Source of the DNA: a virus
Lineage: Duplodnaviria > Heunggongvirae > Uroviricota > Caudoviricetes
Strand: one strand, 5' to 3'
IMG/VR virus record: IMGVR_UViG_2909282993_000005
DNA: 27,486 nt
Of this stretch, positions 3,019 through 23,094 are shown piece by piece. Positions within the stretch are counted from its first letter, which is position 1. Each line of letters starts with the position of its first letter. The notes below the pieces were generated by a model. The model was not told the origin of the DNA and did no database searches. It worked only from the letters and a program-made list of their open reading frames with translations. The translations under genes and the position numbers were made by a program.

Positions 3019-3600
3019 TTACCCTATAGGTGCTACTGGCCATTCAATATCCGGTGCAGTTGTTGTATTAACACGGTTCAGCAACACCCGATACTTCTTC
3101 CAGGCTTCCAGCAACGAGATTTCTTCCTCCGTTGCAATTTCCAGATCTGCAGCATCCTGAAGCGGCGCAATATGCTCACTGGCTACCTGCATCAGGTTGT
3201 TTTTTGTTTCTTCCGCCTCCCGGATCCGGAACAGTTTTTCTGCTTCCGTATCCTTCACCCAGGCTGTGCCGTTCCACTTCTGATATTCCCCTTCCGGCGA
3301 TAACCAGGTGACATTTTCCGGTAACGAGCCAAGTTCAGAAATAAATAACGCGTCGCCGGAAGCCACGTCATAGACGGTTTTTCCCCGATGATCTTCAACG
3401 AGATGCCACGATGCCTCATCACTGTTGAAAACAGCCACAAAGCCAGCCGGAATATCTGGCGGTGCAATATCGGTACTGTTTGCTGGCAGACCTGTATGAG
3501 GCGGAATATATGCGTCACCTTCACCAATAAATTCATTAGTTCCGGCCAGCAGATTATAAATTTTTATGGTCCGTGGTTGTTCACTCATTCTGAATGCCAT
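3019..3600 (-). CDS. Tail fiber assembly protein (Tfa family)
   Basis: 193-aa ORF starting [54 protein letters not shown] and ending [13 protein letters not shown]...IEWP, characteristic of lambdoid TfaQ/TfaR/TfaE proteins. Its start overlaps the stf stop. Confidence 0.85.
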
Positions 3601-7189: not shown

Positions 7190-7306
7190 TTTTCCTCACA
7201 TATGTCATATAGTAAAGGATTATATATACCGTTGTTTTGGACGCTCAAACAGCGAATCAGATCAAATAAAACGCACATTTGTTAACATTTACACAAAGTC
7301 TGCGTG

Positions 7307-7327
7307 GGATATTCTGAAAGAATATCC
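7307..7327. promoter_or_regulatory. 21-bp perfect palindrome ggatattc-tgaaa-gaatatcc (candidate dimeric regulator binding site)
   Basis: Read directly: 8-bp inverted arms around a 5-nt spacer, about 120 bp upstream of the lipoprotein gene start at 7189. No T-run, so not a terminator. Confidence 0.3.
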
Positions 7328-7722
7328 ATAATGTGGAGAGAATCTATTGAAGTGCATGGTGCCGGGTGCCTCCCGGTGAATTCAGTACCAGCACCTGAAT
7401 CCGCGATTATCCCATATACCTACTCGCTGATTGCCCCTCCGCACAGGGGGATTCACCATGCCAGTTTCTTTTAACAAACTCCCCGCAAACCAGAGAACAG
7501 TCAACCGCCTGAATTGTGAAGTATTTAAAAATTTCTCCCGCTAACTGATACCCGGCTAACAGTCTGGCGTTTTCTTTTTCAGCAACGGGAAAGCAACAAC
7601 CACCACACCCGCCACCAGCACACCGTCAGCCAGCACTGACATTATCCGGCTGCTGCAATGCCATTCACAAAAACAGTAAGCAATCACTTTTTACCGTAAC
7701 AGGTGATAATCCAGATATGTAT

Positions 7723-8186: not shown

Positions 8187-8263
8187 TGGCGCGCTGTACT
8201 GGATTCGAACCAGTAACCGATTGCTTAGAAGGCAATTGCTCTGTCCGGCTGAGCTAACAACGC
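8187..8263 (-). tRNA. tRNA-Arg (anticodon UCU)
   Basis: 77-nt cloverleaf GCGTTGTTAGCTCAGCCGGACAGAGCAATTGCCTTCTAAGCAATCGGTTACTGGTTCGAATCCAGTACAGCGCGCCA. 7-bp acceptor stem, T-loop GGTTCGAATCC, anticodon loop CTTCTAA (U33, anticodon TCT, A37), encoded CCA. Confidence 0.85.
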
Positions 8264-8367
8264 TGAATACCGATAATGGACCGCTATCGGGGACCCGCCC
8301 CCCCCCGCACCAACAACCCTGTTATCGTGTCGTCTGCTCTTCCTGATAAGCTCATGGCGGTTTGTGA

Positions 8368-8443
8368 TGGTGGCCCTTGCTGGATTTGAACCAGCGACCT
8401 GGCGATTATGAGTCGCTCGCTCTCACCACTGAGCTAAAGGGCC
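8368..8443 (-). tRNA. tRNA with CAU anticodon, most similar to tRNA-Ile2 (lysidine type, ileX/ileZ-like); elongator Met not fully excluded
   Basis: 76-nt cloverleaf GGCCCTTTAGCTCAGTGGTGAGAGCGAGCGACTCATAATCGCCAGGTCGCTGGTTCAAATCCAGCAAGGGCCACCA. Anticodon loop CTCATAA; strong resemblance to E. coli ileX from recall. Confidence 0.8.
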
Positions 8444-11288: not shown

Positions 11289-11444
11289 TTACTCCTCAGG
11301 TTCGTAAACTGTGAAGACAGCGACCTCCGTCTGGCCGGTTCGGATTCGTAACTCGCAGAGGTCTTTCCTCGTTACCAGTGCCGTCACTATGACGGTTAAA
11401 CAGATGACGATCAGGGCGATTAACATCGCCTTTTGCTGCTTCAT
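11289..11444 (-). CDS. hokD: Hok/Gef-family type I toxin (HokD/RelF-like, 51 aa); in-frame upstream extension to 11501 corresponds to a Mok-like reading frame
   Basis: MKQQKAMLIALIVICLTVIVTALVTRKDLCELRIRTGQTEVAVFTVYEPEE, near-identical to HokD/RelF from recall: single TM helix plus conserved C-terminal periplasmic tail. Confidence 0.9.
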   Translation of the reverse strand: MKQQKAMLIALIVICLTVIVTALVTRKDLCELRIRTGQTEVAVFTVYEPEE

Positions 11445-12164
11445 AGCCTGCTTCTCCTTGCCTTTCGGCACGTAAGAGGCTAACCTAGATTTGCCGTTCA
11501 TAGATTGAGCCTCAGATTAATGTTAAGCGTCTTGCAGGACGCGTAATGTTAACTGGGGCTTTTCTCTATCTGCCTTTGGTGTTCATGCCTGAGGCAGATA
11601 GCCTCAAGCACCCGCAGCAATTCTACTTAACTCCCGTCACCTCGCCAATATAAAATCAATCAGAAAGGCGATCCATAAGAACAACAGCAAGACAATAAAT
11701 TGCCATTACAGCCGCAATAGCTAGCGCACATTTGAGAACCAGCACGACAACCTCCTGTATTGGACGTACACCAGTTCTGATAAATATGAGGCTGTCTCAT
11801 CATTGATTCAATATAACTATTGGGTATAGTTTCTGTGATTTTGTTCTGTAGAAATGGAACACAACAACCAGTCACCACCAGCACTTCTTTAAATACGCCA
11901 AGTCCGACGCAAGCTAACCTTCTAGTCCGCTTTGAGCGAGGAGCGGACCAAACCCGGCCAACTGACTCTTAAAGGGGCCGCAGGAATTTTTCGTCTGAAC
12001 TTTCGAAGCTCCTCTCCCTGAAGACAGAAAACTTCTGTGTGCTGTGGGAATATTGAATCTTTGCATTAGATATAAATAATTTTATCCCGCCTGAAGTTTA
12101 CATTATTTTATTTATCTGTTTTTCTAAATCAGACTGCACTCCTTACTTAAATCAGGAGCCAGTC

Positions 12165-13364
12165 ATGCCATTTGTTATTTATGTGTTTACTATCAGTGCC
12201 TTTGCGCTCGGACTCGCGGAATTTGTCCCCATTGGGCTGACAGACGTTATGGCTCAGGGGTTGTGTGTGGGTGTGGAGCAGACCGGGGCAGCGGTTACAA
12301 CCTATGCACTGGGGGCAACGTTCGCGGCACCCGTACTGTCTGCGCTGACAGCAAGCTGGAGCCGGAAAAATGTAATGCTTACAACTGCCGTTGTGTTTAC
12401 TGCCGGTAGTCTGGCGGCCGCGTTTGCAGCCACATTACCTCAGCTCCTGTTAGCGCGGTTCATTGCTGGTCTGGGACACGGCCTGTTTCTGGCTGCGGCA
12501 TCCAGTACCGCAGCTCGTCTTGCTGGACCGGGTAAAGCAGGCAGAGCGGTGGCTGTGGTATTTGGTGGCTTTACTCTGGCGATGGCAATCGGCGTACCGC
12601 TGAGTACATGGTTGGGGGGGGTGGTCTCATGGCGTCCAGTTCTCGGCGCTATTGCCGCTTTTGGCGCGTTCGGATTCCTTGGACTGTTGTTCGGTATGAA
12701 AGATCCCGTACGCAGCGTGCCCGGTGAACATAGTGACTCAGCAATGCAGAATATCGGCATGCTGTTTAACCGTAAGTTGCTGGCCGGCGCGCTGGTTACG
12801 GTGCTGGCGTATGCAGGCTCGTTTACGGCTTACACCTTTATCGCACCTATTCTGACGCAGGTGACAGGGGTTACCGGAGCAAAGGTGAGTCTGTTTATGC
12901 TGGTTTACGGTATTACAGCTGCGGTAGGTAATATTCTTGGTGGGAAACTTACCGACAGCATGGGGGTTAATCGTGCCAATATACTCATCATTAGCGGCAT
13001 TGTTGTTGTCGTGCTTGGTATGTGGCTGCTGTCATCCTCACCGGTGAGCATGGGCATTCTGGTTGCGCTGCTGGGTATGGTGACATTTGCCGCAGTGCCG
13101 GCACTGCAGGCCCGTCTGATTGGTGTCGCTGAGCAACATGCTCCTCATGCGCATGGTGTTGCTGCCGGCCTGAATATTGCGGGCTTCAACTCAGGTATAG
13201 CGCTGGGATCAGTACTGGGCAGCATTACTATAAGCCACGCCGGTATCGTGTATACCGGTATCAGCGGTGCGATTGTTTCTCTGCTCGGCCTGCTGTTGCT
13301 GCTTGCACAAATCCGTCGCAGCCACAGTCGTAAATTTCAACAGGTTAAAATCGTAGGCCAGTAA
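12165..13364 (+). CDS. MFS transporter (12-TM, DHA1-like efflux/sugar-type family); GC-rich gene
   Basis: 399-aa highly hydrophobic ORF with MFS loop motifs; AGGAG RBS. Nucleotide composition is visibly more GC-rich than the flanking phage DNA. Confidence 0.8.
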   Translation: MPFVIYVFTISAFALGLAEFVPIGLTDVMAQGLCVGVEQTGAAVTTYALGATFAAPVLSALTASWSRKNVMLTTAVVFTAGSLAAAFAATLPQLLLARFIAGLGHGLFLAAASSTAARLAGPGKAGRAVAVVFGGFTLAMAIGVPLSTWLGGVVSWRPVLGAIAAFGAFGFLGLLFGMKDPVRSVPGEHSDSAMQNIGMLFNRKLLAGALVTVLAYAGSFTAYTFIAPILTQVTGVTGAKVSLFMLVYGITAAVGNILGGKLTDSMGVNRANILIISGIVVVVLGMWLLSSSPVSMGILVALLGMVTFAAVPALQARLIGVAEQHAPHAHGVAAGLNIAGFNSGIALGSVLGSITISHAGIVYTGISGAIVSLLGLLLLLAQIRRSHSRKFQQVKIVGQ

Positions 13365-13375
13365 AGGGAGGTTAT

Positions 13376-14068
13376 ATGCTTACCCGTGAAAATATGCTTA
13401 ATGGCACATTTGTCAGGGTGCATGAAGCGCTGCTCCCGGCGAATATGCTCTGGGACGCTGAAAAAATACGCGCATCAATGAACTCTACTCTGGAGGAGCG
13501 CCCGACGGGTGCTCCTTTCTGGATATTTGCCTACGGGTCATTGATGTGGAATCCCGTGCTGGCAATTGAAGAAATGCAACGGGCCCGTCTGAAAGGATGG
13601 CAGCGCAGTTTCTGCATTCGTTTGATATCCGGACGAGCGACTCCTGATGTCCCCGGCAGGATGTTATCGCTCGACGAAGGTGGAATTACCGAAGGTATTG
13701 CGTTCAGACTGCCGGAATCGACTCTTATTAATGAGCTGGAAATTGTCTGGACGCGCGAGATGATAACCGGTCTTTACCGTCCGGTCTGGGCAGACGTTTC
13801 GCTAGGAAACGGTGAGGAAATTCAGGCGCTGGCTTTCGTATCAGACAGACTGCATCCGCATTATGAACAGGACAATCTTACAGCGACCGTAGCGTTGAGC
13901 ATCGCATCTGCCCGTGGAGACATTGGCACGAATGCAGATTATGTATGGAAACTGCAGGCCACTCTGGGTGCGTTGGGAATACGGGATGATTACGTGAGTG
14001 AACTGGCCCTTGCTCTGCATGAGGCTCCCTGTAACGATAAACTTCATCAGCGAGGCGCTTCACTATGA
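13376..14068 (+). CDS. ChaC-family gamma-glutamylcyclotransferase-like protein
   Basis: 230-aa product with FAYGSLMWNP and GRMLSLDEGG...WTREMITG motifs matching the ChaC/GGCT fold signature (YGSL catalytic region). Confidence 0.8.
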   Translation: MLTRENMLNGTFVRVHEALLPANMLWDAEKIRASMNSTLEERPTGAPFWIFAYGSLMWNPVLAIEEMQRARLKGWQRSFCIRLISGRATPDVPGRMLSLDEGGITEGIAFRLPESTLINELEIVWTREMITGLYRPVWADVSLGNGEEIQALAFVSDRLHPHYEQDNLTATVALSIASARGDIGTNADYVWKLQATLGALGIRDDYVSELALALHEAPCNDKLHQRGASL

Positions 14069-14946
14069 GCCATCTGAGCCATCTGCGAACGTTTCTTGAG
14101 GCCTATCGCTCTGGCTCCTTTTCAAAGGCGGCAGAACTACTGGGCATCACTCAGCCCGCGGCGTCACAGCATATCCAGTCTCTTGAGACTCTGGTTGGTA
14201 AGCGTCTGTTTATCAGGCAGGCCAGAGGCGTGACGGCAACCGAAGCTGCGGATGAGCTTGCCCGCTCAGTTTCACCCTTCATTGATGGTCTGGAAGAAAA
14301 GCTGTCCTCTTTCCGGTCAGGCTCTGTACACGGGGGAACAATTAATCTGGCAGGACCGCCAGATTTTATTCATTCCCGGCTTGGGACAGTAATGGCTCCA
14401 CTAATGAAGGAGGGGTATCGCCTACGCTTTCATACCGGCAATAAGCAACGTATTTATTCCCTTTTGCATGACGGGAGCGCCGATCTCGCTGTTACCGCAT
14501 CTATGCCTGATGACCGTCTGTACGGCTATGCACATCTACTGACTGAACGCATGCTCCTTGTTCATGCTCCCGCCATGTCAGAGATCATCGGATCAGAACC
14601 TGGTGCTGAAACGCTTGCCTCATTACCGCTGATTGCTTATGACGAAGAGTTGCCACTGATTAGAGCGCTCTGGGCCTCCATGTTTCAGAGAGCCCCTGAG
14701 ATGCAGGCTACATTCACCATTCCGGATTTACGTATTATCCGCGACTTGGTCTGTGACGGCCACGGGTGGACAGTGCTGCCGGATTATCACTGTGACAATG
14801 ACCTGAAAAGTGGTCGCCTGATTTCAGTGACACCTGCAGACCTCGCTCCGACTAATCATCTTTATCTGGTCTGGAACAAAAGGACGGCTAATAACAGCCG
14901 AACCGCCTATGTTCGGGATTACATTCTTAAAACGTTTCCGCGTTGA
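14065..14946 (+). CDS. LysR-family transcriptional regulator
   Basis: 293-aa product with an N-terminal wHTH typical of LysR (LRTFLEAYRSGSFSKAAELLGITQPAASQHIQSLE) and a C-terminal substrate-binding domain. 4-bp overlap with the ChaC-like gene. Confidence 0.85.
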   Translation: MSHLSHLRTFLEAYRSGSFSKAAELLGITQPAASQHIQSLETLVGKRLFIRQARGVTATEAADELARSVSPFIDGLEEKLSSFRSGSVHGGTINLAGPPDFIHSRLGTVMAPLMKEGYRLRFHTGNKQRIYSLLHDGSADLAVTASMPDDRLYGYAHLLTERMLLVHAPAMSEIIGSEPGAETLASLPLIAYDEELPLIRALWASMFQRAPEMQATFTIPDLRIIRDLVCDGHGWTVLPDYHCDNDLKSGRLISVTPADLAPTNHLYLVWNKRTANNSRTAYVRDYILKTFPR

Positions 14947-14990
14947 TGTTTGAAACGGATGATTGGCGATGTGTATCATAAGTTACGTAT

Positions 14991-15020
14991 GTCCGCTTCT
15001 GGCACAAAGCAGACGCCCAC
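14991..15020. repeat. 30-bp imperfect direct repeat, copy A (gtccgcttctggcacaaagcagacgcccac)
   Basis: Matches copy B at 18664..18693 in 24/30 positions, with a 14-bp core GGCACAAAGCrGAC. Lies between the LysR stop and the convergent membrane-protein gene. Confidence 0.5.
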
Positions 15021-15076
15021 TCTCACGCGAATGCTTTGCCCTTGACTTGCCAACAACCGTATCGCTTGCTCCGCAA

Positions 15077-16369
15077 CTATGGTTTTTTATTAGAACCTTC
15101 GCCACTAAATAAATTATAATAAATTGATTTTATTAGATATCTGTCAGAATCTATATGGTCAGCACGAGTAGCATGCTCTAATGTTTCAAATGCTAGGGTT
15201 TGTGCGGCTTCAGCAAAAATTCCAGGCCAACCCTTACTCAGCATCGACAGTCCTTTAAGTACCCTTATCTGAATTTCCCTCATACTGGCACCATCGCGCG
15301 CAACAGGTGAGAAAAAGTCTTCAAGTAGATCGTTATTCTGAAGTGGTGCAACATGTACAGAAGGATATTTCACTTCTATTTCATCAGATTTATTCTGCGC
15401 GTAAGCGGAAAGTATACGTACACCTCTGCCAATGACATCAATGGCGGTTCCAGGATCGTTCACTGCGGGGGAAAGGGCTCGGCAGGCTATTTCGGCCATG
15501 ACGCTAAGACAAAATCGGGGGTCCTGAGCAAATGAACGTACATCCGAGACAATAATCGTCTCAAGTAAATCGGTGCTGATTGATGACTCCTGGCCCTGAC
15601 TCAGGTACAAAACTGGCGTGGACGGATGTATGAAACTGCCCGGCTGCGCCACGAGGTATACATGACGGGGATCATTGGTCAGCAGCTTGCTGAGTTTCAC
15701 CATATCAACATATTCAACATAGCCAATCTTTTTCGGATAAACTGCAACCGTTCCTTTCGGCTGTTCATTGTTCTCAAGCCATGGATATCCGCCGAGACAG
15801 GGATTTCTTGCTCTCGCAATAAATGTTTCGATGGCCGCCTGTTCTACTTTTGCCGTTGTCTCACCAACCCTCCCCAGAGAGGTCAAATGCTGTATCCAGC
15901 GAAGCAATGTGATGAGGATTAAGGCAATGACAACCAGTGTTACAATGAATAAAATGACTCTCCCCCTTTCTCCATAAGCTCCCATATTGAGGGCAATAAT
16001 CCCTACCAGACTGAAGAGAAAAGAACCGATGAAGGTGGCCAGTACATTTTGTGTGGTGACGTCTTCAACAACTAAACGAGTAGCTCTGGGAGTCACATTA
16101 GTAGTGGCTGAACCGTAGGCTGTGACCATGATGCTCAGCGAAAATGTGGTCACTGCCAGCATACTCGATGCCAGTATGTTCAGAATGTTATCGACTGCTT
16201 CCGCACCAACCTTCACGGAAACCGACTCAGGTATCATTGATTTAAAAAGAATTGATAAAAGGGCCGTTATTATTGCGACAATTGCGAATAACGTTGCCCT
16301 GAACCATAGTTTTTTAAATGTCTGCTTCAGCATCCATTTCCAGCGTGAAATCATTCTGCATTCCCTCAT
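15077..16369 (-). CDS. Membrane protein with N-terminal multi-TM region and C-terminal soluble domain (tentatively DUF2254-like); exact start uncertain (alternative Met codons at residues 6 and 13)
   Basis: 430-aa ORF with four predicted hydrophobic helices in the first ~160 residues and a long hydrophilic C-terminus. Family name is tentative recall. Confidence 0.55.
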   Translation of the reverse strand: MRECRMISRWKWMLKQTFKKLWFRATLFAIVAIITALLSILFKSMIPESVSVKVGAEAVDNILNILASSMLAVTTFSLSIMVTAYGSATTNVTPRATRLVVEDVTTQNVLATFIGSFLFSLVGIIALNMGAYGERGRVILFIVTLVVIALILITLLRWIQHLTSLGRVGETTAKVEQAAIETFIARARNPCLGGYPWLENNEQPKGTVAVYPKKIGYVEYVDMVKLSKLLTNDPRHVYLVAQPGSFIHPSTPVLYLSQGQESSISTDLLETIIVSDVRSFAQDPRFCLSVMAEIACRALSPAVNDPGTAIDVIGRGVRILSAYAQNKSDEIEVKYPSVHVAPLQNNDLLEDFFSPVARDGASMREIQIRVLKGLSMLSKGWPGIFAEAAQTLAFETLEHATRADHIDSDRYLIKSIYYNLFSGEGSNKKP

Positions 16370-16417
16370 ATTGCAGCCGGGATAAATAAATGCCGCCTCT
16401 GTGGCGGCATGTTGCTG

Positions 16418-18421
16418 TTAACGAACCAGATGCAGGAAGTGCAGGTGTTTTTCGTACTGGTCCAGTATGTCATTAATCAGCTGTTCCTGATTCCAGCCCA
16501 TTACATCATAATTTTGGCCGCCCTCTTTGAGATAGACTTCAGCGCGATAATATCGATGTTGTTCACTCTGCTGCTCATCATTATCCAGCGCAGCGAGCGC
16601 GAAGGTCGGTGAGTTATACCCGCGAAGCCTCACTTCATATATATAATTCAGCTCGTTGCCCAAATCGACTTCAAGGCGAATACGATCCTCGGCGGCGTCA
16701 CTGATGTGGCTTATCGTTCCCTGCTTGTTAAGTTCCTCCTGAACCAGCGTCATGGCGGGTTGGATAATGTCGTCCATAAAACGTTTCACAAGAGAGCGCT
16801 TCGGCAAATACGCGATATTGCGTAACCTTCTCTGCCAGGGAATTGGGTTACGTGCAGCCGTAGGAGCAATAGTCGCCATGCTAAGGCTTTCACGCTTGGT
16901 CAAATCCCGACGCAGGGCTTTTAACAGTCCGTATATGGATATTAATAAGATAACTGAGAAGGGCAATGCACTCGCTATCGTTACGGTTTGCAACGCACTC
17001 AGCCCCCCTGCGATCAGCAGGGCAATAGCAACAACGCCCATGAGCGATGCCCAGAAAATTCGCTGCCAGACGGGCGTGTTTGCCACCCCACCTGATGCCA
17101 GAGTATCCACAACCATTGCCCCCGAATCAGCAGACGTTACAAAGAAGACGATGACCATCGCCATTGCAATGAATGACAGCACGGAAGAGAACGGGAAATG
17201 CTCCAGGAAATTAAACAGGGCAAGCGCAACATCCTGCTGAACGGTATTGGCGAGGTCAGTGGCGCCCTGGTTCATGATGAGATAGATGGCGCTGTTTCCA
17301 AACACCGTCATCCACATGAGCGTAAAGCCGGCGGGAACAAACAACACGCCAGTCACGAACTCACGAATTGTCCTGCCGCGGGAAACGCGTGCAATGAACA
17401 TACCTACAAACGGCGACCATGAAAGCCACCATCCCCAGTATAATAATGTCCAGCCCCCCAGCCAGTTGCTCGACTTGGGTTCATACGCGTAAAGGTTGAA
17501 CGTTTTACTCACCAGTTCCGACAGATAACCACCCGTATTTTCCACAAATGACTTCAGCAGAAGCACAGTGGGACCCAGGCACAAGACCAGCGCCAGGAGC
17601 AACACCGCCAGGCCCAGATTAAGCTCAGACAGGATGCGTATTCCCTTGTCCAGGCCGGACACCACCGAAATCGTCGCTAACCCCGTGATGACCACGATCA
17701 AAATGACCTGTACCGTTTCATTGATGGGCACGCCGAAAAGATGGTTCAAACCGGCATTCACCTGCAATACACCGTAACCCAGTGATGTTGCAACGCCAAA
17801 GACAGTGCCTATCACGGCGAAGATATCAACCGCGTGGCCTATAGGCCCGTAAATGCGATCGCCGATAATGGGATAGAGCGCAGAACGCAGCGTTAAAGGC
17901 AGACCGTGACGGTAACTGAAAAAGGCCAGAATCAGCGCCACGATGGCATAAATTGCCCATGCGTGCAGACCCCAGTGGAAGAACGTCAGGCGCATGGCTT
18001 CCTTCGCTGCCGCAACGGTCTCTGGAGTGCCGACAGGTGGCGAAAGATAATGCATCACAGGTTCGGCAACGCCAAAGAACATCAGGCCGATCCCCATCCC
18101 TGCCGAAAAAAGCATCGCGAACCAGGAGTGGTAGCTGAAATCAGGCTGCGCATGGTCTGGGCCCAGCTTTATATCACCGTAACGTGAGAGTCCAAGGAAC
18201 GTGACGCTCAGTAAAATCAGGGCCACAGCAAGTATGTAGAACCAGCTGGCATTCGTGAAGATTTGTTGCTGAAGTAGTTTAAAATTTTTGTCGGCGACAT
18301 CCGGGAATACGGCGGCAAAGGCGACAAGAAGGAAAATTAGCAAAGCAGATGTAAAGAATACCGCTTTGTTAATCTGGCTTGTAGACTTCTTTGGGGTTGT
18401 ATCATTTTCACTCATAATCAT
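16418..18421 (-). CDS. BCCT-family transporter (BetT-like choline/betaine/carnitine transporter)
   Basis: 667-aa product with BCCT signature regions (WTLLYWGWWLSWSPFVGMFIARVSRGRTIREF) and the C-terminal DILDQYEKHLHFLHL tail typical of BetT. Confidence 0.85.
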   Translation of the reverse strand: MIMSENDTTPKKSTSQINKAVFFTSALLIFLLVAFAAVFPDVADKNFKLLQQQIFTNASWFYILAVALILLSVTFLGLSRYGDIKLGPDHAQPDFSYHSWFAMLFSAGMGIGLMFFGVAEPVMHYLSPPVGTPETVAAAKEAMRLTFFHWGLHAWAIYAIVALILAFFSYRHGLPLTLRSALYPIIGDRIYGPIGHAVDIFAVIGTVFGVATSLGYGVLQVNAGLNHLFGVPINETVQVILIVVITGLATISVVSGLDKGIRILSELNLGLAVLLLALVLCLGPTVLLLKSFVENTGGYLSELVSKTFNLYAYEPKSSNWLGGWTLLYWGWWLSWSPFVGMFIARVSRGRTIREFVTGVLFVPAGFTLMWMTVFGNSAIYLIMNQGATDLANTVQQDVALALFNFLEHFPFSSVLSFIAMAMVIVFFVTSADSGAMVVDTLASGGVANTPVWQRIFWASLMGVVAIALLIAGGLSALQTVTIASALPFSVILLISIYGLLKALRRDLTKRESLSMATIAPTAARNPIPWQRRLRNIAYLPKRSLVKRFMDDIIQPAMTLVQEELNKQGTISHISDAAEDRIRLEVDLGNELNYIYEVRLRGYNSPTFALAALDNDEQQSEQHRYYRAEVYLKEGGQNYDVMGWNQEQLINDILDQYEKHLHFLHLVR

Positions 18422-18755: not shown

Positions 18756-19178
18756 TCACTTCAATAAATACCGAACATCCCCCTGATAAAACGACAATAT
18801 GCGCTGCATAACTTCGCTCTTCCGGCACTCGCGACAGATTATGTTTAGGCGACTGTCGTAGCGACGTATTTCTCCGTCAGGTAATGACCAGATAAGGTCC
18901 GGATCAACCACAACCGGTTTCTTCAGCTTTGCCCTCGATAATTTTTTGCGGGCATTTTGCCAGTCTTTACGAGCCTGTTCAGACGGGAATAACCCGTAGC
19001 CAGAATTGTATACATCGCCACTGGCAACCAGCTCTCTGGCCAGAACGCTCATCAGATATCTTGTTGCCCCAGTTTTAGCTTCCAGTTGTCGTAACGTCTC
19101 GCGCCCACTCTGGCGTACGAGTTCAAGAACCTGCCCTTTAATTTTTTCCCGCTCTTCTTGTGTAAAAACTTTTGCCAC
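18756..19178 (-). CDS. Hypothetical phage protein downstream of the replication initiator (P-position of lambda, but too short to be a helicase loader)
   Basis: 140-aa ORF with a strong AGGAGG RBS. C-terminal CRECRK motif; no recognisable domain. Confidence 0.5.
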   Translation of the reverse strand: MAKVFTQEEREKIKGQVLELVRQSGRETLRQLEAKTGATRYLMSVLARELVASGDVYNSGYGLFPSEQARKDWQNARKKLSRAKLKKPVVVDPDLIWSLPDGEIRRYDSRLNIICRECRKSEVMQRILSFYQGDVRYLLK

Positions 19179-19218: not shown

Positions 19219-20289
19219 TTACCCCCTGAAGCCCGGCGGAATTTCGTTATCCGGTTCAGAAATATGATTCACACAACGCTGGTTGTTCGTGCCGCTTACC
19301 GGGAGCAACCAGGGGTTCTCAAAATTCCGGTCCGGTCCAAAAAACGTCGTCGCTCGCTGAACAAATTCCGTTCCCGTTTTCCCGGTAGCCGCCAAGTATC
19401 TTGCGTAACGCCTCACGCCATCCAGCATGGCCTCTGGTGGCACCCCCTCGCGTAATCTGGCCTTCCAGGCACTGAAAGCGGATTTCTTCGGGTTTGCCCC
19501 AGCACGCAACGGGTACTCCCGCCAGACCTGTTCGAACACATCCGGATAATCCACTCGTCCCACAGACTGCCCGGTGTTTTCCGGGACTACCCGATCGGCT
19601 TCCCGCTGAATGGCGGAATCGGCTTCAGGCTGCTGCAGTTGGTGTGATTGCTCCGCCCTTGCGGTCATCACCTGCTGCACAGCGCCCGAATCGGCTTTCA
19701 GCGCATACGCTGAATCGGCTTCCGGTGTCGTGCCTGCTGGCTGACCAAGATTGACGGTCTGAACATCCCCTGCCTGGTTCGTGGCGTTTTTTACGCCATG
19801 GACCATAGTGTTTTGATCTTCTTGATCTGTATCTTTATCTGTATCTTTATCTGTCGTGACTCGTCGTGACATGTGCGTGACATTTCGTGACGCGCCGTGA
19901 CAATCGCCATTTTGTTCCCGCTTTCTTTCCCTCTCTCGCTGCGCCCTCTTGCGCTCTGCAGGAGATTTTGCGGTTTGCGAAATATTGCCGTTGTCCTCTT
20001 TAAGCACCTGGCGTTTTTCCCATCCAGTGATTAAATCACCATCAAGTACCCGCCCCTGCATCGTCTGCAAAATTGAATCAATTACCTCTTCTGTCACGTC
20101 GAGCGCACTTGCCAAATCTTCTGTCGTGACATCAATGTGACCTCGCGTGACATTTCGTGACGCGCTCACCAGGAGGTGGATATACACTGCCATCACTGTT
20201 GCAATTGGCTGCCCTGACACCCTGGCAATTGTTCGCCACTTAGGGTCATTTGGCATGTCATGCCATAATCTGAGCCAGGCGTTAGCCAT
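19219..20289 (-). CDS. Putative replication initiation protein (lambda O-like organisation: iteron arrays inside the coding sequence)
   Basis: 356-aa product from the ATG at 20289 (RBS AGAGGTGA); the ORF track starts two codons earlier at GTG. Sits at the O position after the cro/cII-like genes. Contains two arrays of CGTGAC repeats at 10-11-bp spacing, mirrored in the protein as repeated SRNVT(R/H)..VTT motifs. Confidence 0.55.
   Translation of the reverse strand: MANAWLRLWHDMPNDPKWRTIARVSGQPIATVMAVYIHLLVSASRNVTRGHIDVTTEDLASALDVTEEVIDSILQTMQGRVLDGDLITGWEKRQVLKEDNGNISQTAKSPAERKRAQRERERKREQNGDCHGASRNVTHMSRRVTTDKDTDKDTDQEDQNTMVHGVKNATNQAGDVQTVNLGQPAGTTPEADSAYALKADSGAVQQVMTARAEQSHQLQQPEADSAIQREADRVVPENTGQSVGRVDYPDVFEQVWREYPLRAGANPKKSAFSAWKARLREGVPPEAMLDGVRRYARYLAATGKTGTEFVQRATTFFGPDRNFENPWLLPVSGTNNQRCVNHISEPDNEIPPGFRG
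19855..19901. repeat. Iteron array 1: five CGTGAC motifs spaced 10-11 bp (starts 19855, 19865, 19876, 19886, 19896), preceded by two GATC sites and a tandem 12-bp repeat tatctttatctg
   Basis: Read directly from the sequence. Helical-turn periodicity and location inside the rep ORF resemble lambdoid ori organisation. Confidence 0.6.
20093..20161. repeat. Iteron array 2: CGTGAC/TGTGAC motifs at 20125, 20136, 20146, 20156 plus an inverted copy GTCACG at 20093
   Basis: Read directly; same motif and spacing as array 1, about 225 bp away within the same ORF. Confidence 0.55.
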
Positions 20290-20360
20290 ACTCACCTCTT
20301 TTGATACCGAATCTTTTTACTCACAAATTGCCGGAAGTGATCCGGTATGAATATTGCGAG

Positions 20361-20786
20361 TCAATGCACAGCCACAATATTTCCTGCAGGGCCACCACGA
20401 TTCATCTGGTTGAAACCAGCGATCGCCACTGCGACAAAATCATCAGCGTCTCTCACCAGTCGTTCCCGCGTCTCCACTAGTTCCCGAAAATAGGCTGAGC
20501 TATGGCTGCGCATTCGGGCCACCAGCAGAGGTGGCATTGCTTTTTCGATAGCTGGTAACAACGCCTGAATTTTTTCAACTGCATCAGGGGTGTCTTTCTC
20601 TACCCAGCGGAAAATTTTCTGGGTATTGCGAGCCAGGGCTTCCGGATGGCTGTCGTCATACAGTTCTGGGAACGTCATACCCAGTTCAAAATAAGCCCTG
20701 GTTATTTCAGCTGCCGGAACTTTTTCACCGTCCGGATGCGCCCAGGCATTCATCGCCATGCGGATGTGTTCATGCTTGATTTTCAT
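20361..20786 (-). CDS. YdaT-like protein (cII-position early protein of Rac-type prophages)
   Basis: 141-aa product beginning MKIKHEHI and ending VH with central KIQALLPAI, resembling Rac YdaT from recall; AGGAG RBS. Confidence 0.5.
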   Translation of the reverse strand: MKIKHEHIRMAMNAWAHPDGEKVPAAEITRAYFELGMTFPELYDDSHPEALARNTQKIFRWVEKDTPDAVEKIQALLPAIEKAMPPLLVARMRSHSSAYFRELVETRERLVRDADDFVAVAIAGFNQMNRGGPAGNIVAVH

Positions 20787-21051
20787 GAATCAAGCTCCTA
20801 GAAAGTGGTTGTGTTAACATTTTGGTATCTTCCAGCTCGGGCCAAATATTCATCCAATCAAAAGGCCTTAGTTGCTGACGTGTAACTTCACCATTACTGG
20901 CTCGCTCAATAAGGACACATAACGATGCCCCTAACACTTGACCTTTACTCAATGCCTTTCTTAGATAACCGATGCTGGTACCACACTCGCATGCAAACAT
21001 ACGCTGTTCATCTGACGAAAGAGAATTGAGAAATATTCTTAATTCTTCCAT
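20770..21051 (-). CDS. Cro-like HTH protein of the YdaS family
   Basis: 93-aa product with HTH (QRMFACECGTSIGYLRKALSKGQ) and an ERASNGEVTRQQLRP motif resembling YdaS. Strong AAGGAG RBS; divergent from the repressor gene. Confidence 0.6.
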   Translation of the reverse strand: MEELRIFLNSLSSDEQRMFACECGTSIGYLRKALSKGQVLGASLCVLIERASNGEVTRQQLRPFDWMNIWPELEDTKMLTQPLSRSLIHENQA

Positions 21052-21080
21052 AGCTACTCCTTAGTAAACACAGCAAAGAA

Positions 21081-21116
21081 TACCCACAGGTAAACAAAAG
21101 TCAATACCCACAGGTT
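21081..21116. promoter_or_regulatory. Operator-like sites in the divergent repressor/cro-like intergenic region: TACCCACAGGTA (21081-21092) and TACCCACAGGTT (21105-21116)
   Basis: Two copies of a 12-bp near-palindrome spaced 24 bp apart between divergent genes, related to two more copies downstream of the repressor gene. A further half-match overlaps the repressor start codon. Confidence 0.5.
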
Positions 21117-21151
21117 GTTTACCTTGCAGTAATCGCATCTATTATTTACCT

Positions 21152-21571
21152 ATGGACAAATATGAATTTAGACGACAGCAACTCATCAAAATTCGTGATG
21201 AGAAATGCGATGGTAAAGCGGTTAACGTGGCCAGAAAGATCGGGCGCGAGCCTTCTTATGTATCAAGAATGTTGTACCCAGAGGGGAAAAAGGGAAAAAA
21301 ACGGATCGCTGATGATATGGTGGAGATTATCGAAGAGTCCTTTGGGTTACCCCGGGGATGGATGGATGGTATCGTTTCATCATCAACGAACACAGCCTCC
21401 AGTTATGAAACAAGGGTTCTAACGCCACGACAACGTATTTTTTTAGATCTCTTAGACGAACTGCCAGAAAGTGAAGCGGATAACTTATTAAAAACTCTTG
21501 AAGAGAAAAAACAGTATTACAATATGATCTACGAAGAAATCCGTAAAAAGAAAGCACAAAACGCATCATAG
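21152..21571 (+). CDS. CI/DicA/RacR-position prophage repressor-like protein
   Basis: 139-aa ORF divergent from the cro-like gene with a putative HTH (KAVNVARKIGREPSYVSRMLY). C-terminal FLDLLDELPESEADNLL resembles the DicA C-terminus from recall. No obvious RBS, so possibly a leaderless transcript. Confidence 0.5.
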   Translation: MDKYEFRRQQLIKIRDEKCDGKAVNVARKIGREPSYVSRMLYPEGKKGKKRIADDMVEIIEESFGLPRGWMDGIVSSSTNTASSYETRVLTPRQRIFLDLLDELPESEADNLLKTLEEKKQYYNMIYEEIRKKKAQNAS

Positions 21572-21613
21572 CTCACCAAACAACTAGTCACCAGTTAAGA
21601 CACCGCAAAAAGT

Positions 21614-21650
21614 TACCCATGGGTATTTACTTTTTAAATACCTATGGGTA
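21614..21650. promoter_or_regulatory. Operator-like palindromes downstream of the repressor gene (OL-equivalent): TACCCATGGGTA (21614-21625) and TACCTATGGGTA (21639-21650)
   Basis: Perfect and near-perfect 12-bp palindromes, 13 bp apart, upstream of the rightward ydfA-like operon. Confidence 0.5.
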
Positions 21651-21836
21651 TCCTTCTTTTCATACCAACCCACCCCGCCCCACAGAATGCAGGGCAATAC
21701 TTCGAGTTACCAGGCAGTGGTCAGGGGTTAAGTAGCCAGCCCGAGGCGTAAGAACATGACGGCAGGGTTCAACTTTAATAACTATGCAGCAGGTTTTTGT
21801 TCCGCTACCCCGGCGTTAAGGGGAAATGAGGTCAGC

Positions 21837-21992
21837 ATGGATACTATCGATCTTGGCAACAGCGAATCTCTGGTATGTGGCGTGTTCCCCAACCAAGACG
21901 GTACGTTCACCGCGATGACGTATACCAAAAGCAAAACGTTTAAAACCGAAAATGGTGCCCGTCGCTGGCTGGAAAGAAACTCAGGTGAGTGA
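21837..21992 (+). CDS. Small phage protein, YdfA-like (51 aa)
   Basis: MDTIDLGNSESLVCGVFPNQDGTFTAMTYTKSKTFKTENGARRWLERNSGE with a GAGG RBS. First gene of the early-left operon, as in the Qin dicA-ydfABC-dicF-dicB arrangement. Confidence 0.5.
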   Translation: MDTIDLGNSESLVCGVFPNQDGTFTAMTYTKSKTFKTENGARRWLERNSGE

Positions 21993-21993
21993 T

Positions 21994-22122
21994 ATGGATT
22001 TCGACACAATCATGGAAAAGGCTTACGAAGAATACTTCGAAGGTCTTGCCGAAGGCGAAGAAGCTCTCAGCTTCAACGAATTTAAACAGGCGCTTTCCAG
22101 TTCGGCAAAATCTAACGGCTGA
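21994..22122 (+). CDS. Small acidic phage protein, YdfB-like (42 aa)
   Basis: MDFDTIMEKAYEEYFEGLAEGEEALSFNEFKQALSSSAKSNG. Start 2 nt after the preceding stop with a GGTGA RBS. Not in the supplied ORF track (below size cut-off). Confidence 0.4.
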   Translation: MDFDTIMEKAYEEYFEGLAEGEEALSFNEFKQALSSSAKSNG

Positions 22123-22151
22123 TAAGCGAAACAGCACCGCGAGGAATCAGT

Positions 22152-22367
22152 ATGCAGAAACGAGAACCCGTCATCATCGCGCCAGACTATACCGATGATG
22201 AACTTTATGAGTGGATGCACCAGAAAATTAATGCAGCGCAGGATCTGAAATGGGCCAATGAAGCTAGGGCTAAGCAGGCTGAAAATCTGTCCGCTCTGGA
22301 GCAGGATATCACCAATCTGGAAAAAGCAGCAGCATTAAGCATTGCCAGAATGATTACAGGTTGGTAA
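22152..22367 (+). CDS. Small phage protein, YdfC-like (71 aa)
   Basis: ORF with GAGGA RBS, positioned between the ydfB-like gene and dicF. Confidence 0.5.
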   Translation: MQKREPVIIAPDYTDDELYEWMHQKINAAQDLKWANEARAKQAENLSALEQDITNLEKAAALSIARMITGW

Positions 22368-22678
22368 TAAAGGAGTTCTCCACGGGTGAGGTGGAGTGCG
22401 TGTGCCGGACACGGGTGAGCATCCGGCACTGACAGTTTACTGAAAGGATATTTCCCTGAAAAGTCAGACCATAACGCGAAAGCGCACGGCGAGGTAGCTG
22501 GTTCATAGATAGCCTGTCGTTAAATTTTCGTCGACCGTGCGCTTCCGGTTGTGGCAATCCGCGAAATGGCGCGGCGGTAAGTATGGCGGGGTTATTCCTT
22601 CCCCGTTGAGGACACCGGGTTGTCAGGTTGACCATACGCTTAAGTGACAACCCCGCTGCAACGCCCTCTGTTATCAAT

Positions 22679-22731
22679 TTTCTGGTGACGTTTGGCGGTA
22701 TCAGTTTTACTCCGTGACTGCTCTGCCGCCC
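22679..22731 (+). ncRNA. dicF: DicF small RNA (cell-division inhibitor sRNA targeting ftsZ mRNA)
   Basis: 53-nt sequence TTTCTGGTGACGTTTGGCGGTATCAGTTTTACTCCGTGACTGCTCTGCCGCCC matches DicF from recall, followed by a T-run (22732-22736) and preceded by a structured ~300-nt leader. Confidence 0.8.
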
Positions 22732-22905
22732 TTTTTAAAGTGAATTTTGTGATGTGGTGAATGCGGCTGAGCGCACGCGGAACAGTTAAAACCAAAAACA
22801 GTGTTATGGGTGGATTCTCTGTATCCGGCGTTAATTGTTAACTGGTTAACGTCACCTGGAGGCACCAGGCACCGCATCACAAAATTCATTGTTGAGGACG
22901 CGATA

Positions 22906-23094
22906 ATGAAAACGTTATTACCAAACGTTAATACGTCTGAAGGTTGTTTTGAAATTGGTGTCACTATCAGTAACCCAGTATTTACTGAAGATGCCATTAA
23001 CAAGAGAAAACAAGAACGGGAGCTATTAAATAAAATATGCATTGTTTCAATGCTGGCTCGTTTACGTCTGATGCCAAAAAGATGTGCACAATGA
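22906..23094 (+). CDS. dicB: Cell division inhibitor DicB (MinC-activating, 62 aa)
   Basis: MKTLLPNVNTSEGCFEIGVTISNPVFTEDAINKRKQERELLNKICIVSMLARLRLMPKRCAQ, essentially the DicB sequence as recalled. Confidence 0.85.
   Translation: MKTLLPNVNTSEGCFEIGVTISNPVFTEDAINKRKQERELLNKICIVSMLARLRLMPKRCAQ

Follow-up and report, generated by a model that had tools for sequence, protein, structure and literature searches.

The viral DNA studied here is the 27,486-nucleotide (nt) IMG/VR record IMGVR_UViG_2909282993_000005, the whole of which we call the window. It is a segment of an Escherichia coli lambdoid prophage, and its positions 20300-22200 are 100% identical to many E. coli chromosomes. Between a cro-like gene and a divergent repressor gene, and again just downstream of the latter, the window carries short inverted repeats of the form TACC-N4-GGTA. 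We consider it very likely that these repeats are the operators of a lambdoid immunity switch, arranged as a right (OR) and a left (OL) operator region on three predicted promoters. The predicted sites number five, three in OR and two in OL, and they are located as follows with respect to the genes concerned.

20770..21051, minus strand: cro-like gene (93 residues, YdaS-type), first in the operon of promoter PR; taken from the list of open reading frames, matches phrog_35
21081..21092: site OR1, TACCCACAGGTA, an exact TACC-N4-GGTA
21105..21116: site OR2, TACCCACAGGTT, with a weak right half
21120..21131: site OR3, TACCTTGCAGTA, one mismatch to TACC-N4-GGTA, found with the centre left free
21147..21158: start-codon pseudo-site, TACCTATGGACA, two mismatches
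21152..21571, plus strand: repressor gene (139 residues), "hypothetical protein" in RefSeq; matches phrog_5736
21614..21625: site OL2, TACCCATGGGTA, a perfect palindrome directly 5' of the -35 hexamer of promoter PL
21639..21650: site OL1, TACCTATGGGTA, its right half overlapping the -10 hexamer of PL
21837..23094, plus strand: ydfA, ydfB, ydfC, DicF RNA and dicB (Pfam DUF1391 and DicB, RefSeq annotation)

An earlier note, made from the sequence alone, had described four copies of a 12-bp palindrome, two between the cro-like and repressor genes and two just 3' of the repressor gene, and had seen the motif only at these positions. The 12-bp motif TACCYAYRGGTA has three exact matches in the window (21081, 21614 and 21639), and shuffled sequences lead one to expect 0.01. 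One mismatch (GGTT) separates the site at 21105 from it, and two separate the start-codon site at 21147, so only three of the four copies are exact. The note had also missed the third intergenic site at 21120; the 100-bp gap between the cro-like and repressor genes thus holds three sites instead of two. The two palindromes 3' of the repressor gene proved exact, and they lie on a PR-like promoter. No exact copy was found elsewhere in the 27.5-kb window, which bears out the restriction to these positions for exact copies; when one or two mismatches are allowed, the count over the window is about the shuffled expectation. The word palindrome fits OL2 fully, but the 21081 and 21105 sites are palindromic only in their outer TACC/GGTA arms, because their centre, CACA, is not self-complementary. 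We also looked for a third OL site and rejected it, as there is no site with two or fewer mismatches between 21572 and 21613.

A consensus scan of positions 20900-21900, with a threshold of 9 (of 12), returned exactly two promoter-like sites, both of them on repeats. PL was read from the sequence.

21077..21104, minus strand: predicted promoter PR; -35 TTGACT (21104-21099), 16-bp spacer, -10 TATTCT (21082-21077), predicted start at about 21070
21118..21145, plus strand: predicted promoter PRM; -35 TTTACC, 16-bp spacer, -10 TATTAT, predicted start at 21152, the A of the repressor ATG
21626..21654, plus strand: predicted promoter PL; -35 TTTACT (21626-21631), 17-bp spacer, -10 TATCCT (21649-21654), predicted start at about 21661

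As predicted, PR drives the cro-like, YdaT and replication genes and PRM drives the repressor gene, and PL faces ydfABC-dicF-dicB. OR2 abuts the -35 hexamer of PR, and OR1 fills the spacer and shares the first two bases of the -10 hexamer. The -35 hexamer of PRM is overlapped by the left half of OR3. Over 20-24 nt, the PL and PR regions are homologous in inverted orientation (repeats I1 and I3). This likeness extends to the geometry, since the operator centres lie at -16.5 (OR1) and -40.5 (OR2) from the predicted PR start and at -16.5 (OL1) and -41.5 (OL2) from the predicted PL start. From the predicted PRM start, the three OR centres lie at -26.5, -41.5 (OR2) and -65.5 (OR1). Six nucleotides separate the -10 hexamer of PRM from the repressor ATG, which no Shine-Dalgarno sequence precedes; the transcript would therefore start with the A of this ATG or an adjacent base, which supports a leaderless repressor mRNA.

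In order to evaluate whether this layout extends beyond the window, we scanned species-representative genomes and retained 42 loci (290 kb in total) encoding an N-terminal repressor domain 38-82% identical to that of the window. They come from Gamma- and Betaproteobacteria, including Enterobacterales, Aeromonas, Neisseria, Xanthomonas, Stenotrophomonas, Burkholderiales and other groups. Exact TACC-N4-GGTA sites number 120 in these loci, against 4.4 expected. Sixty-two exact sites fall at -110 to -20 from the repressor ATG and cluster at -73 and -33, one-mismatch sites cluster at -48, and beyond -110 we found one exact site across all loci. Most loci have an exact OR1-equivalent site at -71 to -75 and, likewise, an exact OR3-equivalent site at -32 to -35. 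The OR2 consensus is CAATACCnnnnGGTtATTTACC, its degenerate right half being itself conserved. The overall consensus 5' of the ATG reads tTTACCnnnnGGTAA, n6, aaTCAATACCnnnnGGTTATTTACCnnnnGGTAA, n7, TAnAAT, n6, ATGGATAAATAC, and the TTGA(C/T)T hexamer between OR1 and OR2 is kept in related loci.

Downstream of the repressor operon, a few exact sites are isolated, and an exact pair 20-40 bp apart is present in 23 of the 42 loci. The typical spacing of the downstream pair is 25-26 bp, and the consensus of its second site (the OL1 equivalent) is tTACCnnnnGGTAtnnT. A downstream pair was available for comparison in 33 loci, namely, the window, phage mEp043, the E. coli allele L003 and 30 of the scan loci. 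In these, a TTGACA-like hexamer directly follows the first OL site and a TAtnnT hexamer overlaps the second. In the site logos, the centre carries about 0.1-1.1 bits and TACC/GGTA carries 1.4-2.0 bits (mostly 1.8-2.0 for the OL sites and OR1). Conservation in homologous prophages thus holds, with sites at the same positions in the 42 loci and in the functional phage mEp043. About 40 bp 5' of OL2, mEp043 (L002, 3553-3574) and several S24-type loci (L011, L013 and L016) display a wider inverted repeat, TTACCTGA, n8-10, then (T)CAGGTAA, to which nothing in the window is similar; it could be a third OL site with another half-site spacing.

These counts bear on the possibility that the repeats are chance or compositional and have no function. 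The number of motif matches with one or two mismatches, which is near the shuffled expectation over the whole window, would agree with it. The exact copies are far in excess of expectation in the window and in the related loci, they stand at fixed positions, they overlap promoters and they covary with the repressor type, and we give this explanation virtually no credence.

Taken together, the 131 exact sites of the window and related loci define the motif more closely. Position 5 is a pyrimidine in 89% of them, position 7 is a pyrimidine in 79%, position 8 is a purine in 86%, and position 6 is free. The consensus is therefore TACCYNYRGGTA and not TACCYAYRGGTA, and what is conserved is TACC-N4-GGTA around a weak Y-N-Y-R centre. 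A YAYR centre was considered and rejected, as position 6 is unconstrained.

The PRM arrangement is conserved as well. Among the 34 loci that keep OR1 and OR3, most have a -10-like hexamer whose last base lies 6-7 nt ahead of the ATG (TAnnnT in 20, and a looser AAT-ending hexamer in most of the rest), and only 5 have a Shine-Dalgarno-like sequence. The leaderless arrangement would therefore be a family trait. A leaderless transcript had been proposed in the earlier note on the basis of a half-site overlapping the start codon; the conserved position of the -10 hexamer and the missing Shine-Dalgarno sequence uphold the transcript, and the half-site does not serve as its basis. That half-site is confined to close enterobacterial alleles: the close E. 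coli alleles carry it intact and the Salmonella allele has it in degraded form, but neither mEp043 nor any of the 42 distant loci has it. We rejected it as an operator, which it probably is not.

The loci also indicate which protein the sites belong to. The operators are the same although the C-terminal part of the repressor varies (S24 peptidase, DicA-like helices or other), and specificity therefore follows the N-terminal domain. A cro-like homologue (36-73% identity) is divergent from the repressor in 34 of the 42 loci, and this co-occurrence would also suit an alternative in which the sites belong to the cro-like (YdaS-type) protein or another factor and not to the 139-residue protein. The footprints of YdaS and PaaR2 indeed overlap in CP-933P (PMC8630535), and sequence alone cannot assign sites to one of two such proteins. 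Nevertheless, Klebsiella loci L006, L009, L010 and L012 lack a cro-like gene; all four keep the exact site at -73, all but L006 keep the one at -33, and L006, L010 and L012 still keep the downstream pair. Furthermore, the motif tracks the repressor N-terminal domain whatever the C-terminal domain. We thus regard an assignment to the cro-like protein or another factor as improbable, and since both proteins share operators in lambdoid switches, it would complement the assignment to the repressor more than rival it. The four Klebsiella loci, which also lack OR2 and encode a 233-residue S24-type protein, may use the same repressor and operator in a domesticated form or otherwise than as a switch.

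Covariation of the motif with the repressor was evident from phage Tritos, which has the same ydfA-dicF-dicB-ydfD-exonuclease flank together with a 139-residue CI. Tritos CI and the window protein have their C-terminal domain in common but differ in the N-terminal domain. Accordingly, the motif is kept with the N-terminal domain in the 42 loci and replaced in Tritos, whose intergenic and post-repressor regions show GTAC-type repeats and no TACC-N4-GGTA. Tritos and the window become homologous again at about 21668, no more than about 10 nt past the predicted PL start, so the exchangeable immunity cassette ends just past PL, with the OL sites inside. Together with the promoter overlap and the conservation in the 42 loci and mEp043, this covariation sustains the OR/OL logic that the earlier note had read from the sequence. 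The leader of about 170 nt between the PL start and the ydfA ATG (21668-21836) is kept in Tritos and L003 (other immunity types), and homology of Qin with it is absent until the ydfA ribosome-binding site.

Among E. coli alleles of this immunity type with 94-97% identity, differences in the sites affect the four central bases and spare TACC/GGTA. OR3 reads TACCTTGCGGTA, an exact match, in alleles L003, L048 and L049; its right half is AGTA in the window versus GGTA in these three. Some repressor homologues (P0012, P0018 and P0110) begin with MNLDD..., encoded in the +2 frame of window positions 21162-21422, and then switch to the repressor frame. Such homologues are frameshifted alleles, and they suggest that the repressor is decaying in some strains.

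We then characterized the repressor. It had no match in a Pfam search, although its first 75 residues or so, which form the N-terminal helix-turn-helix domain (residues 1-75), are widely conserved. An AlphaFold2 model (mean predicted local distance difference test score, 83.8) shows a helical N-terminal domain (residues 3-63) followed by a conserved GWMDG segment, a disordered linker (77-87) and a two-helix C-terminal hairpin (92-138). Foldseek retrieved Xre-type helix-turn-helix proteins, including restriction-modification controller proteins, HigA and SinR, all with weak scores, and a sequence search of the PDB returned nothing meaningful (best match, ADAR Z-alpha, E = 0.08). Over 46 residues, the C-terminal domain shares 33% identity with that of DicA (BLASTP, E = 1e-7), whereas the N-terminal domain is not DicA-like; the NCBIfam DicA model scored 23.9 bits against a cutoff of 101 and matched residues 86-136 only. 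The window repressor has no S24 (LexA-like) autocleavage domain according to Pfam and to the helical C terminus of the AlphaFold2 model, and RecA-stimulated cleavage is therefore unlikely. Many repressor homologues do carry this domain (PF00717), which marks the classical lambda subtype and not the switch as such.

In the switch that we propose, dimers of the 139-residue repressor would recognize TACC-N4-GGTA by means of their N-terminal helix-turn-helix domains, and the same sites would probably be bound by the cro-like protein as well. Bound at OR1, over the spacer and -10 hexamer of PR, and at OR2, against its -35 hexamer, the repressor would jointly shut off the operon of cro-like, YdaT and replication genes. 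From its centre at -41.5 relative to the repressor start, OR2 may also stimulate repressor synthesis. In lambda, the CI that activates PRM sits at a similar position. Occupancy of OR3, over the PRM -35 hexamer, would limit repressor synthesis at high repressor concentration. The mRNA would start at or within one base of the ATG and be leaderless. OL2 and OL1 would repeat the PR design on the promoter facing ydfABC-dicF-dicB, and the division inhibitors would be silent while the repressor is present; the PL transcript may also run on towards the recombination genes, whose control by the repressor the earlier note had proposed. By analogy with DicA and Rem (PMC10448788), we infer that induction would proceed through an antirepressor or loss of the repressor, and not through RecA-stimulated self-cleavage.

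The OL pair could also act at the level of RNA, as a terminator scan pointed to the following element.

21614..21660, plus strand: predicted OL2/OL1 RNA hairpin with a 16-bp stem and a 5-nt loop, followed by UCCUUCUUUU

According to this explanation, the OL2/OL1 palindromes would act mainly or additionally as RNA, namely, as an intrinsic terminator of the repressor mRNA that blocks read-through into dicBF. The scan selected 21614-21650 plus TCCTTCTTTT, the 16-bp stem is perfect, with a fold energy of -24.1 kcal/mol (z = -4.6), and the window hairpin is the most stable of the 33 OL pairs. The 42 nt between the stop codon and OL2 contain no other terminator, the 10 S24-type relatives with stop-to-OL gaps of 69-132 nt all have a canonical GC-rich terminator in the gap, and the T-rich tail is kept in alleles L003, L048 and L049. 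Two nearby copies of one palindrome will, however, always pair somewhat, making some hairpin potential automatic. In addition, the stem is A+U-rich, with G-C in only 5 of 16 pairs, and C residues interrupt the U-tract UCCUUCUUUU. In allele L003, the centre of one site is altered with no compensating change in the other, so that the stem has two mismatches, and the Salmonella allele lacks the T-rich tail. Finally, across taxa, TACC and GGTA keep constant positions with respect to the -35 and -10 hexamers, which is a DNA-level constraint. We therefore hold a terminator role to be rather unlikely, if conceivable; should it exist, it would add to the operator function and not replace it, a combination that we propose only tentatively. 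It is equally doubtful that a single 47-bp OL element, DNA operator and RNA terminator at once, insulates the toxic dicBF from both upstream promoters. The function that we favour for OL2 and OL1 is that of DNA operators on PL.

By position and sequence, the predicted PL (21626-21654) stands 5' of ydfA, DicF and dicB, and the operon ydfA-ydfB-ydfC-DicF-dicB is presumed to be under OL/PL control. Ahead of dicF and dicB, the cassette was present, at a coverage of at least 80%, in 821 of 5426 complete E. coli genomes (∼15%). Further features of the window are the following.

19219-20295, minus strand: replication-initiator gene
20361-20786, minus strand: YdaT/CII-like gene (Pfam YdaT_toxin, 39.6 bits; cutoff, 21)
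22680-22731, plus strand: DicF RNA (Rfam DicF, 76.7 bits)
22906-23094, plus strand: dicB (Pfam DicB)
3059-3257, 7300-7490, 8190-8443 and 11439-11613: Rfam features of the late/lysis part

The plus strand continues 3' of dicB with ydfD, an exonuclease VIII-like gene, an excisionase gene and an integrase gene. The cro-like protein scored 25.8 bits with Pfam YdaS_toxin, under the cutoff of 30. At 20776-20793, TTGATTTTCATGAATCAA is an exact copy, the sole one in the window, of the published YdaT motif TTGATTN6AATCAA (PMC9986795); this box covers the start codon of ydaT, where that gene meets the cro-like gene. The Rfam matches in the late/lysis part are IS009, the small RNA STnc100, two tRNAs and the sok antitoxin RNA. 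A non-phage block at 12165-18421 encodes a major facilitator superfamily transporter, a ChaC-like protein, a LysR regulator, DUF2254 and a BCCT transporter, and is flanked by replication genes (DUF977, 18756-19178) and by a region with hok/sok, DUF968 and a Q antiterminator. It is either a cargo island or the junction of two prophage remnants.

Several points weigh against the proposed switch. The hexamers of PL are weak, matching the consensus at 8 of 12 positions, which is under the scan threshold. The OR2-OR3 spacing is 15 bp, leaving 3 bp between the sites, and it is uncertain whether both can be occupied jointly. Negative autoregulation may be weakened in this strain by the G-to-A change in OR3. 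The prophage is interrupted by the putative cargo island, and other strains have frameshifted repressor alleles, so that decay of the switch may be under way in some members of the population. Our literature search also retrieved no paper describing the TACC-N4-GGTA motif or TACCCATGGGTA.

If the switch operates as proposed, the operator, the three promoters and the limits of the cassette provide a model for when carrier strains express DicB and DicF. The N-terminal domain, for which there is no Pfam model, may define one of the most widely conserved operator/switch geometries in prophages of Beta- and Gammaproteobacteria. If that is true, immunity groups would be predictable from sequence through the N-terminal domain and the operator geometry, and the motif would supply a sequence rule for assigning such prophages to one predicted immunity group. 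The related loci also form a natural domain-swap series, in which one DNA-binding domain is joined to S24, DicA-like or other C termini, and in which the evolution of the induction mode can be followed on a fixed switch. The current understanding of lambdoid regulation is unchanged, as the same logic is already established for DicA/DicC of Qin and for PaaR2/YdaS of CP-933P. In our literature searches, we found no paper on this repressor family, no description of the window repressor in work on DicA/DicC in O157, and, judging by the titles or abstracts of the papers listed, no publication on the operators of mEp043.

In Qin, the dicA-dicC locus resembles an immunity region, with operators reported on both sides of dicA; dicBp, 5' of ydfA, is the source of the entire dicBF transcript, DicA represses this promoter 22-fold, and the antirepressor Rem relieves the repression (PMC10448788). 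No counterpart of Rem came to light in the window, where no search aimed at one was made. Qin and the window share the gene order (cro-like gene, divergent short repressor gene, ydfABC-dicF-dicB-ydfD) and a repressor of about 135-139 residues with a related C-terminal domain and no RecA-cleavage domain. In contrast, their N-terminal DNA-binding domains are unrelated in sequence, and the DicA operator Oc is TTGTTAGTCATAACTAACAA (PMC3441716) versus TACC-N4-GGTA, the intergenic region of the window having no Oc-type operator. DNA homology between Qin and the window begins only near the ydfA ribosome-binding site.

CP-933P of E. coli O157:H7 is similar in having a short repressor divergent from a YdaS-type Cro and a YdaT-type CII. 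Footprints of PaaR2 and YdaS cover repeats between its divergent promoters, a PL-like promoter has similar operators and PR-like hexamers, and paaR2 is leaderless (PMC8630535). The window likewise has predicted intergenic operators, a second predicted set on a PL-like promoter and a repressor mRNA predicted to be leaderless, and its exact YdaT box (motif from PMC9986795) parallels the YdaT module of CP-933P. The two differ in their repeats, GTTTAGTAA in CP-933P (PMC8630535) versus TACC-N4-GGTA in the window, as compared by published consensus. They differ also in the genes that follow the repressor gene (paaA2-parE2 versus ydfA) and in the cro-like protein, which in the window is under the Pfam YdaS threshold.

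Lambda itself has three operators between divergent PR and PRM and more on PL 3' of the repressor operon, as is predicted for the window. The OR1-OR2 spacing of 24 bp and the OR2 centre near -42 from PRM are also alike, whereas the OR2-OR3 spacing is 23 bp in lambda and 15 bp in the window. Lambda sites are 17 bp long versus a 12-bp core, and lambda has three OL sites versus two. Unlike in lambda, the repressor of this allele lacks an S24 domain, and the window has no N gene, with PL facing dicBF instead. The leaderless mRNA predicted for the window repressor has a counterpart in lambda cI (cited in PMC8630535).

Structurally, the best Foldseek match was Rep of Salmonella phage SPC32H (PDB 5d50 and 5d4z), a short repressor with a helix-turn-helix and a helical C-terminal part that has been crystallised together with its antirepressor; this is a weak match (E = 1.7e-3, TM-score of about 0.45, 16-22% identity) and amounts to a fold-class resemblance only. 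The functional lambdoid phage mEp043 has a DNA-binding domain of the same family as the window; its cI is 65% identical to the window repressor over residues 1-86, and the two cro-like proteins share 73% identity. Both OR and OL of mEp043 agree with those of the window in operator motif, site number and spacing. The OR of mEp043, between cro and cI, comprises TACCTGTAGGTA, TACCCATAGGTT and TACCGGCAGGTA, spaced 25 and 15 bp, and its OL, ahead of gene N, comprises TACCTATAGGTA and TACCTGTAGGTA, 25 bp apart. mEp043 differs from the window in that its cI has 228 residues, with a longer and different C-terminal part and close homologues that carry an S24 peptidase domain, and in that its PL drives gene N and a separate terminator precedes OL. 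Altogether, these comparisons show the window to be a further immunity type of a known arrangement, with its own DNA-binding domain and operator, and not a new kind of system.

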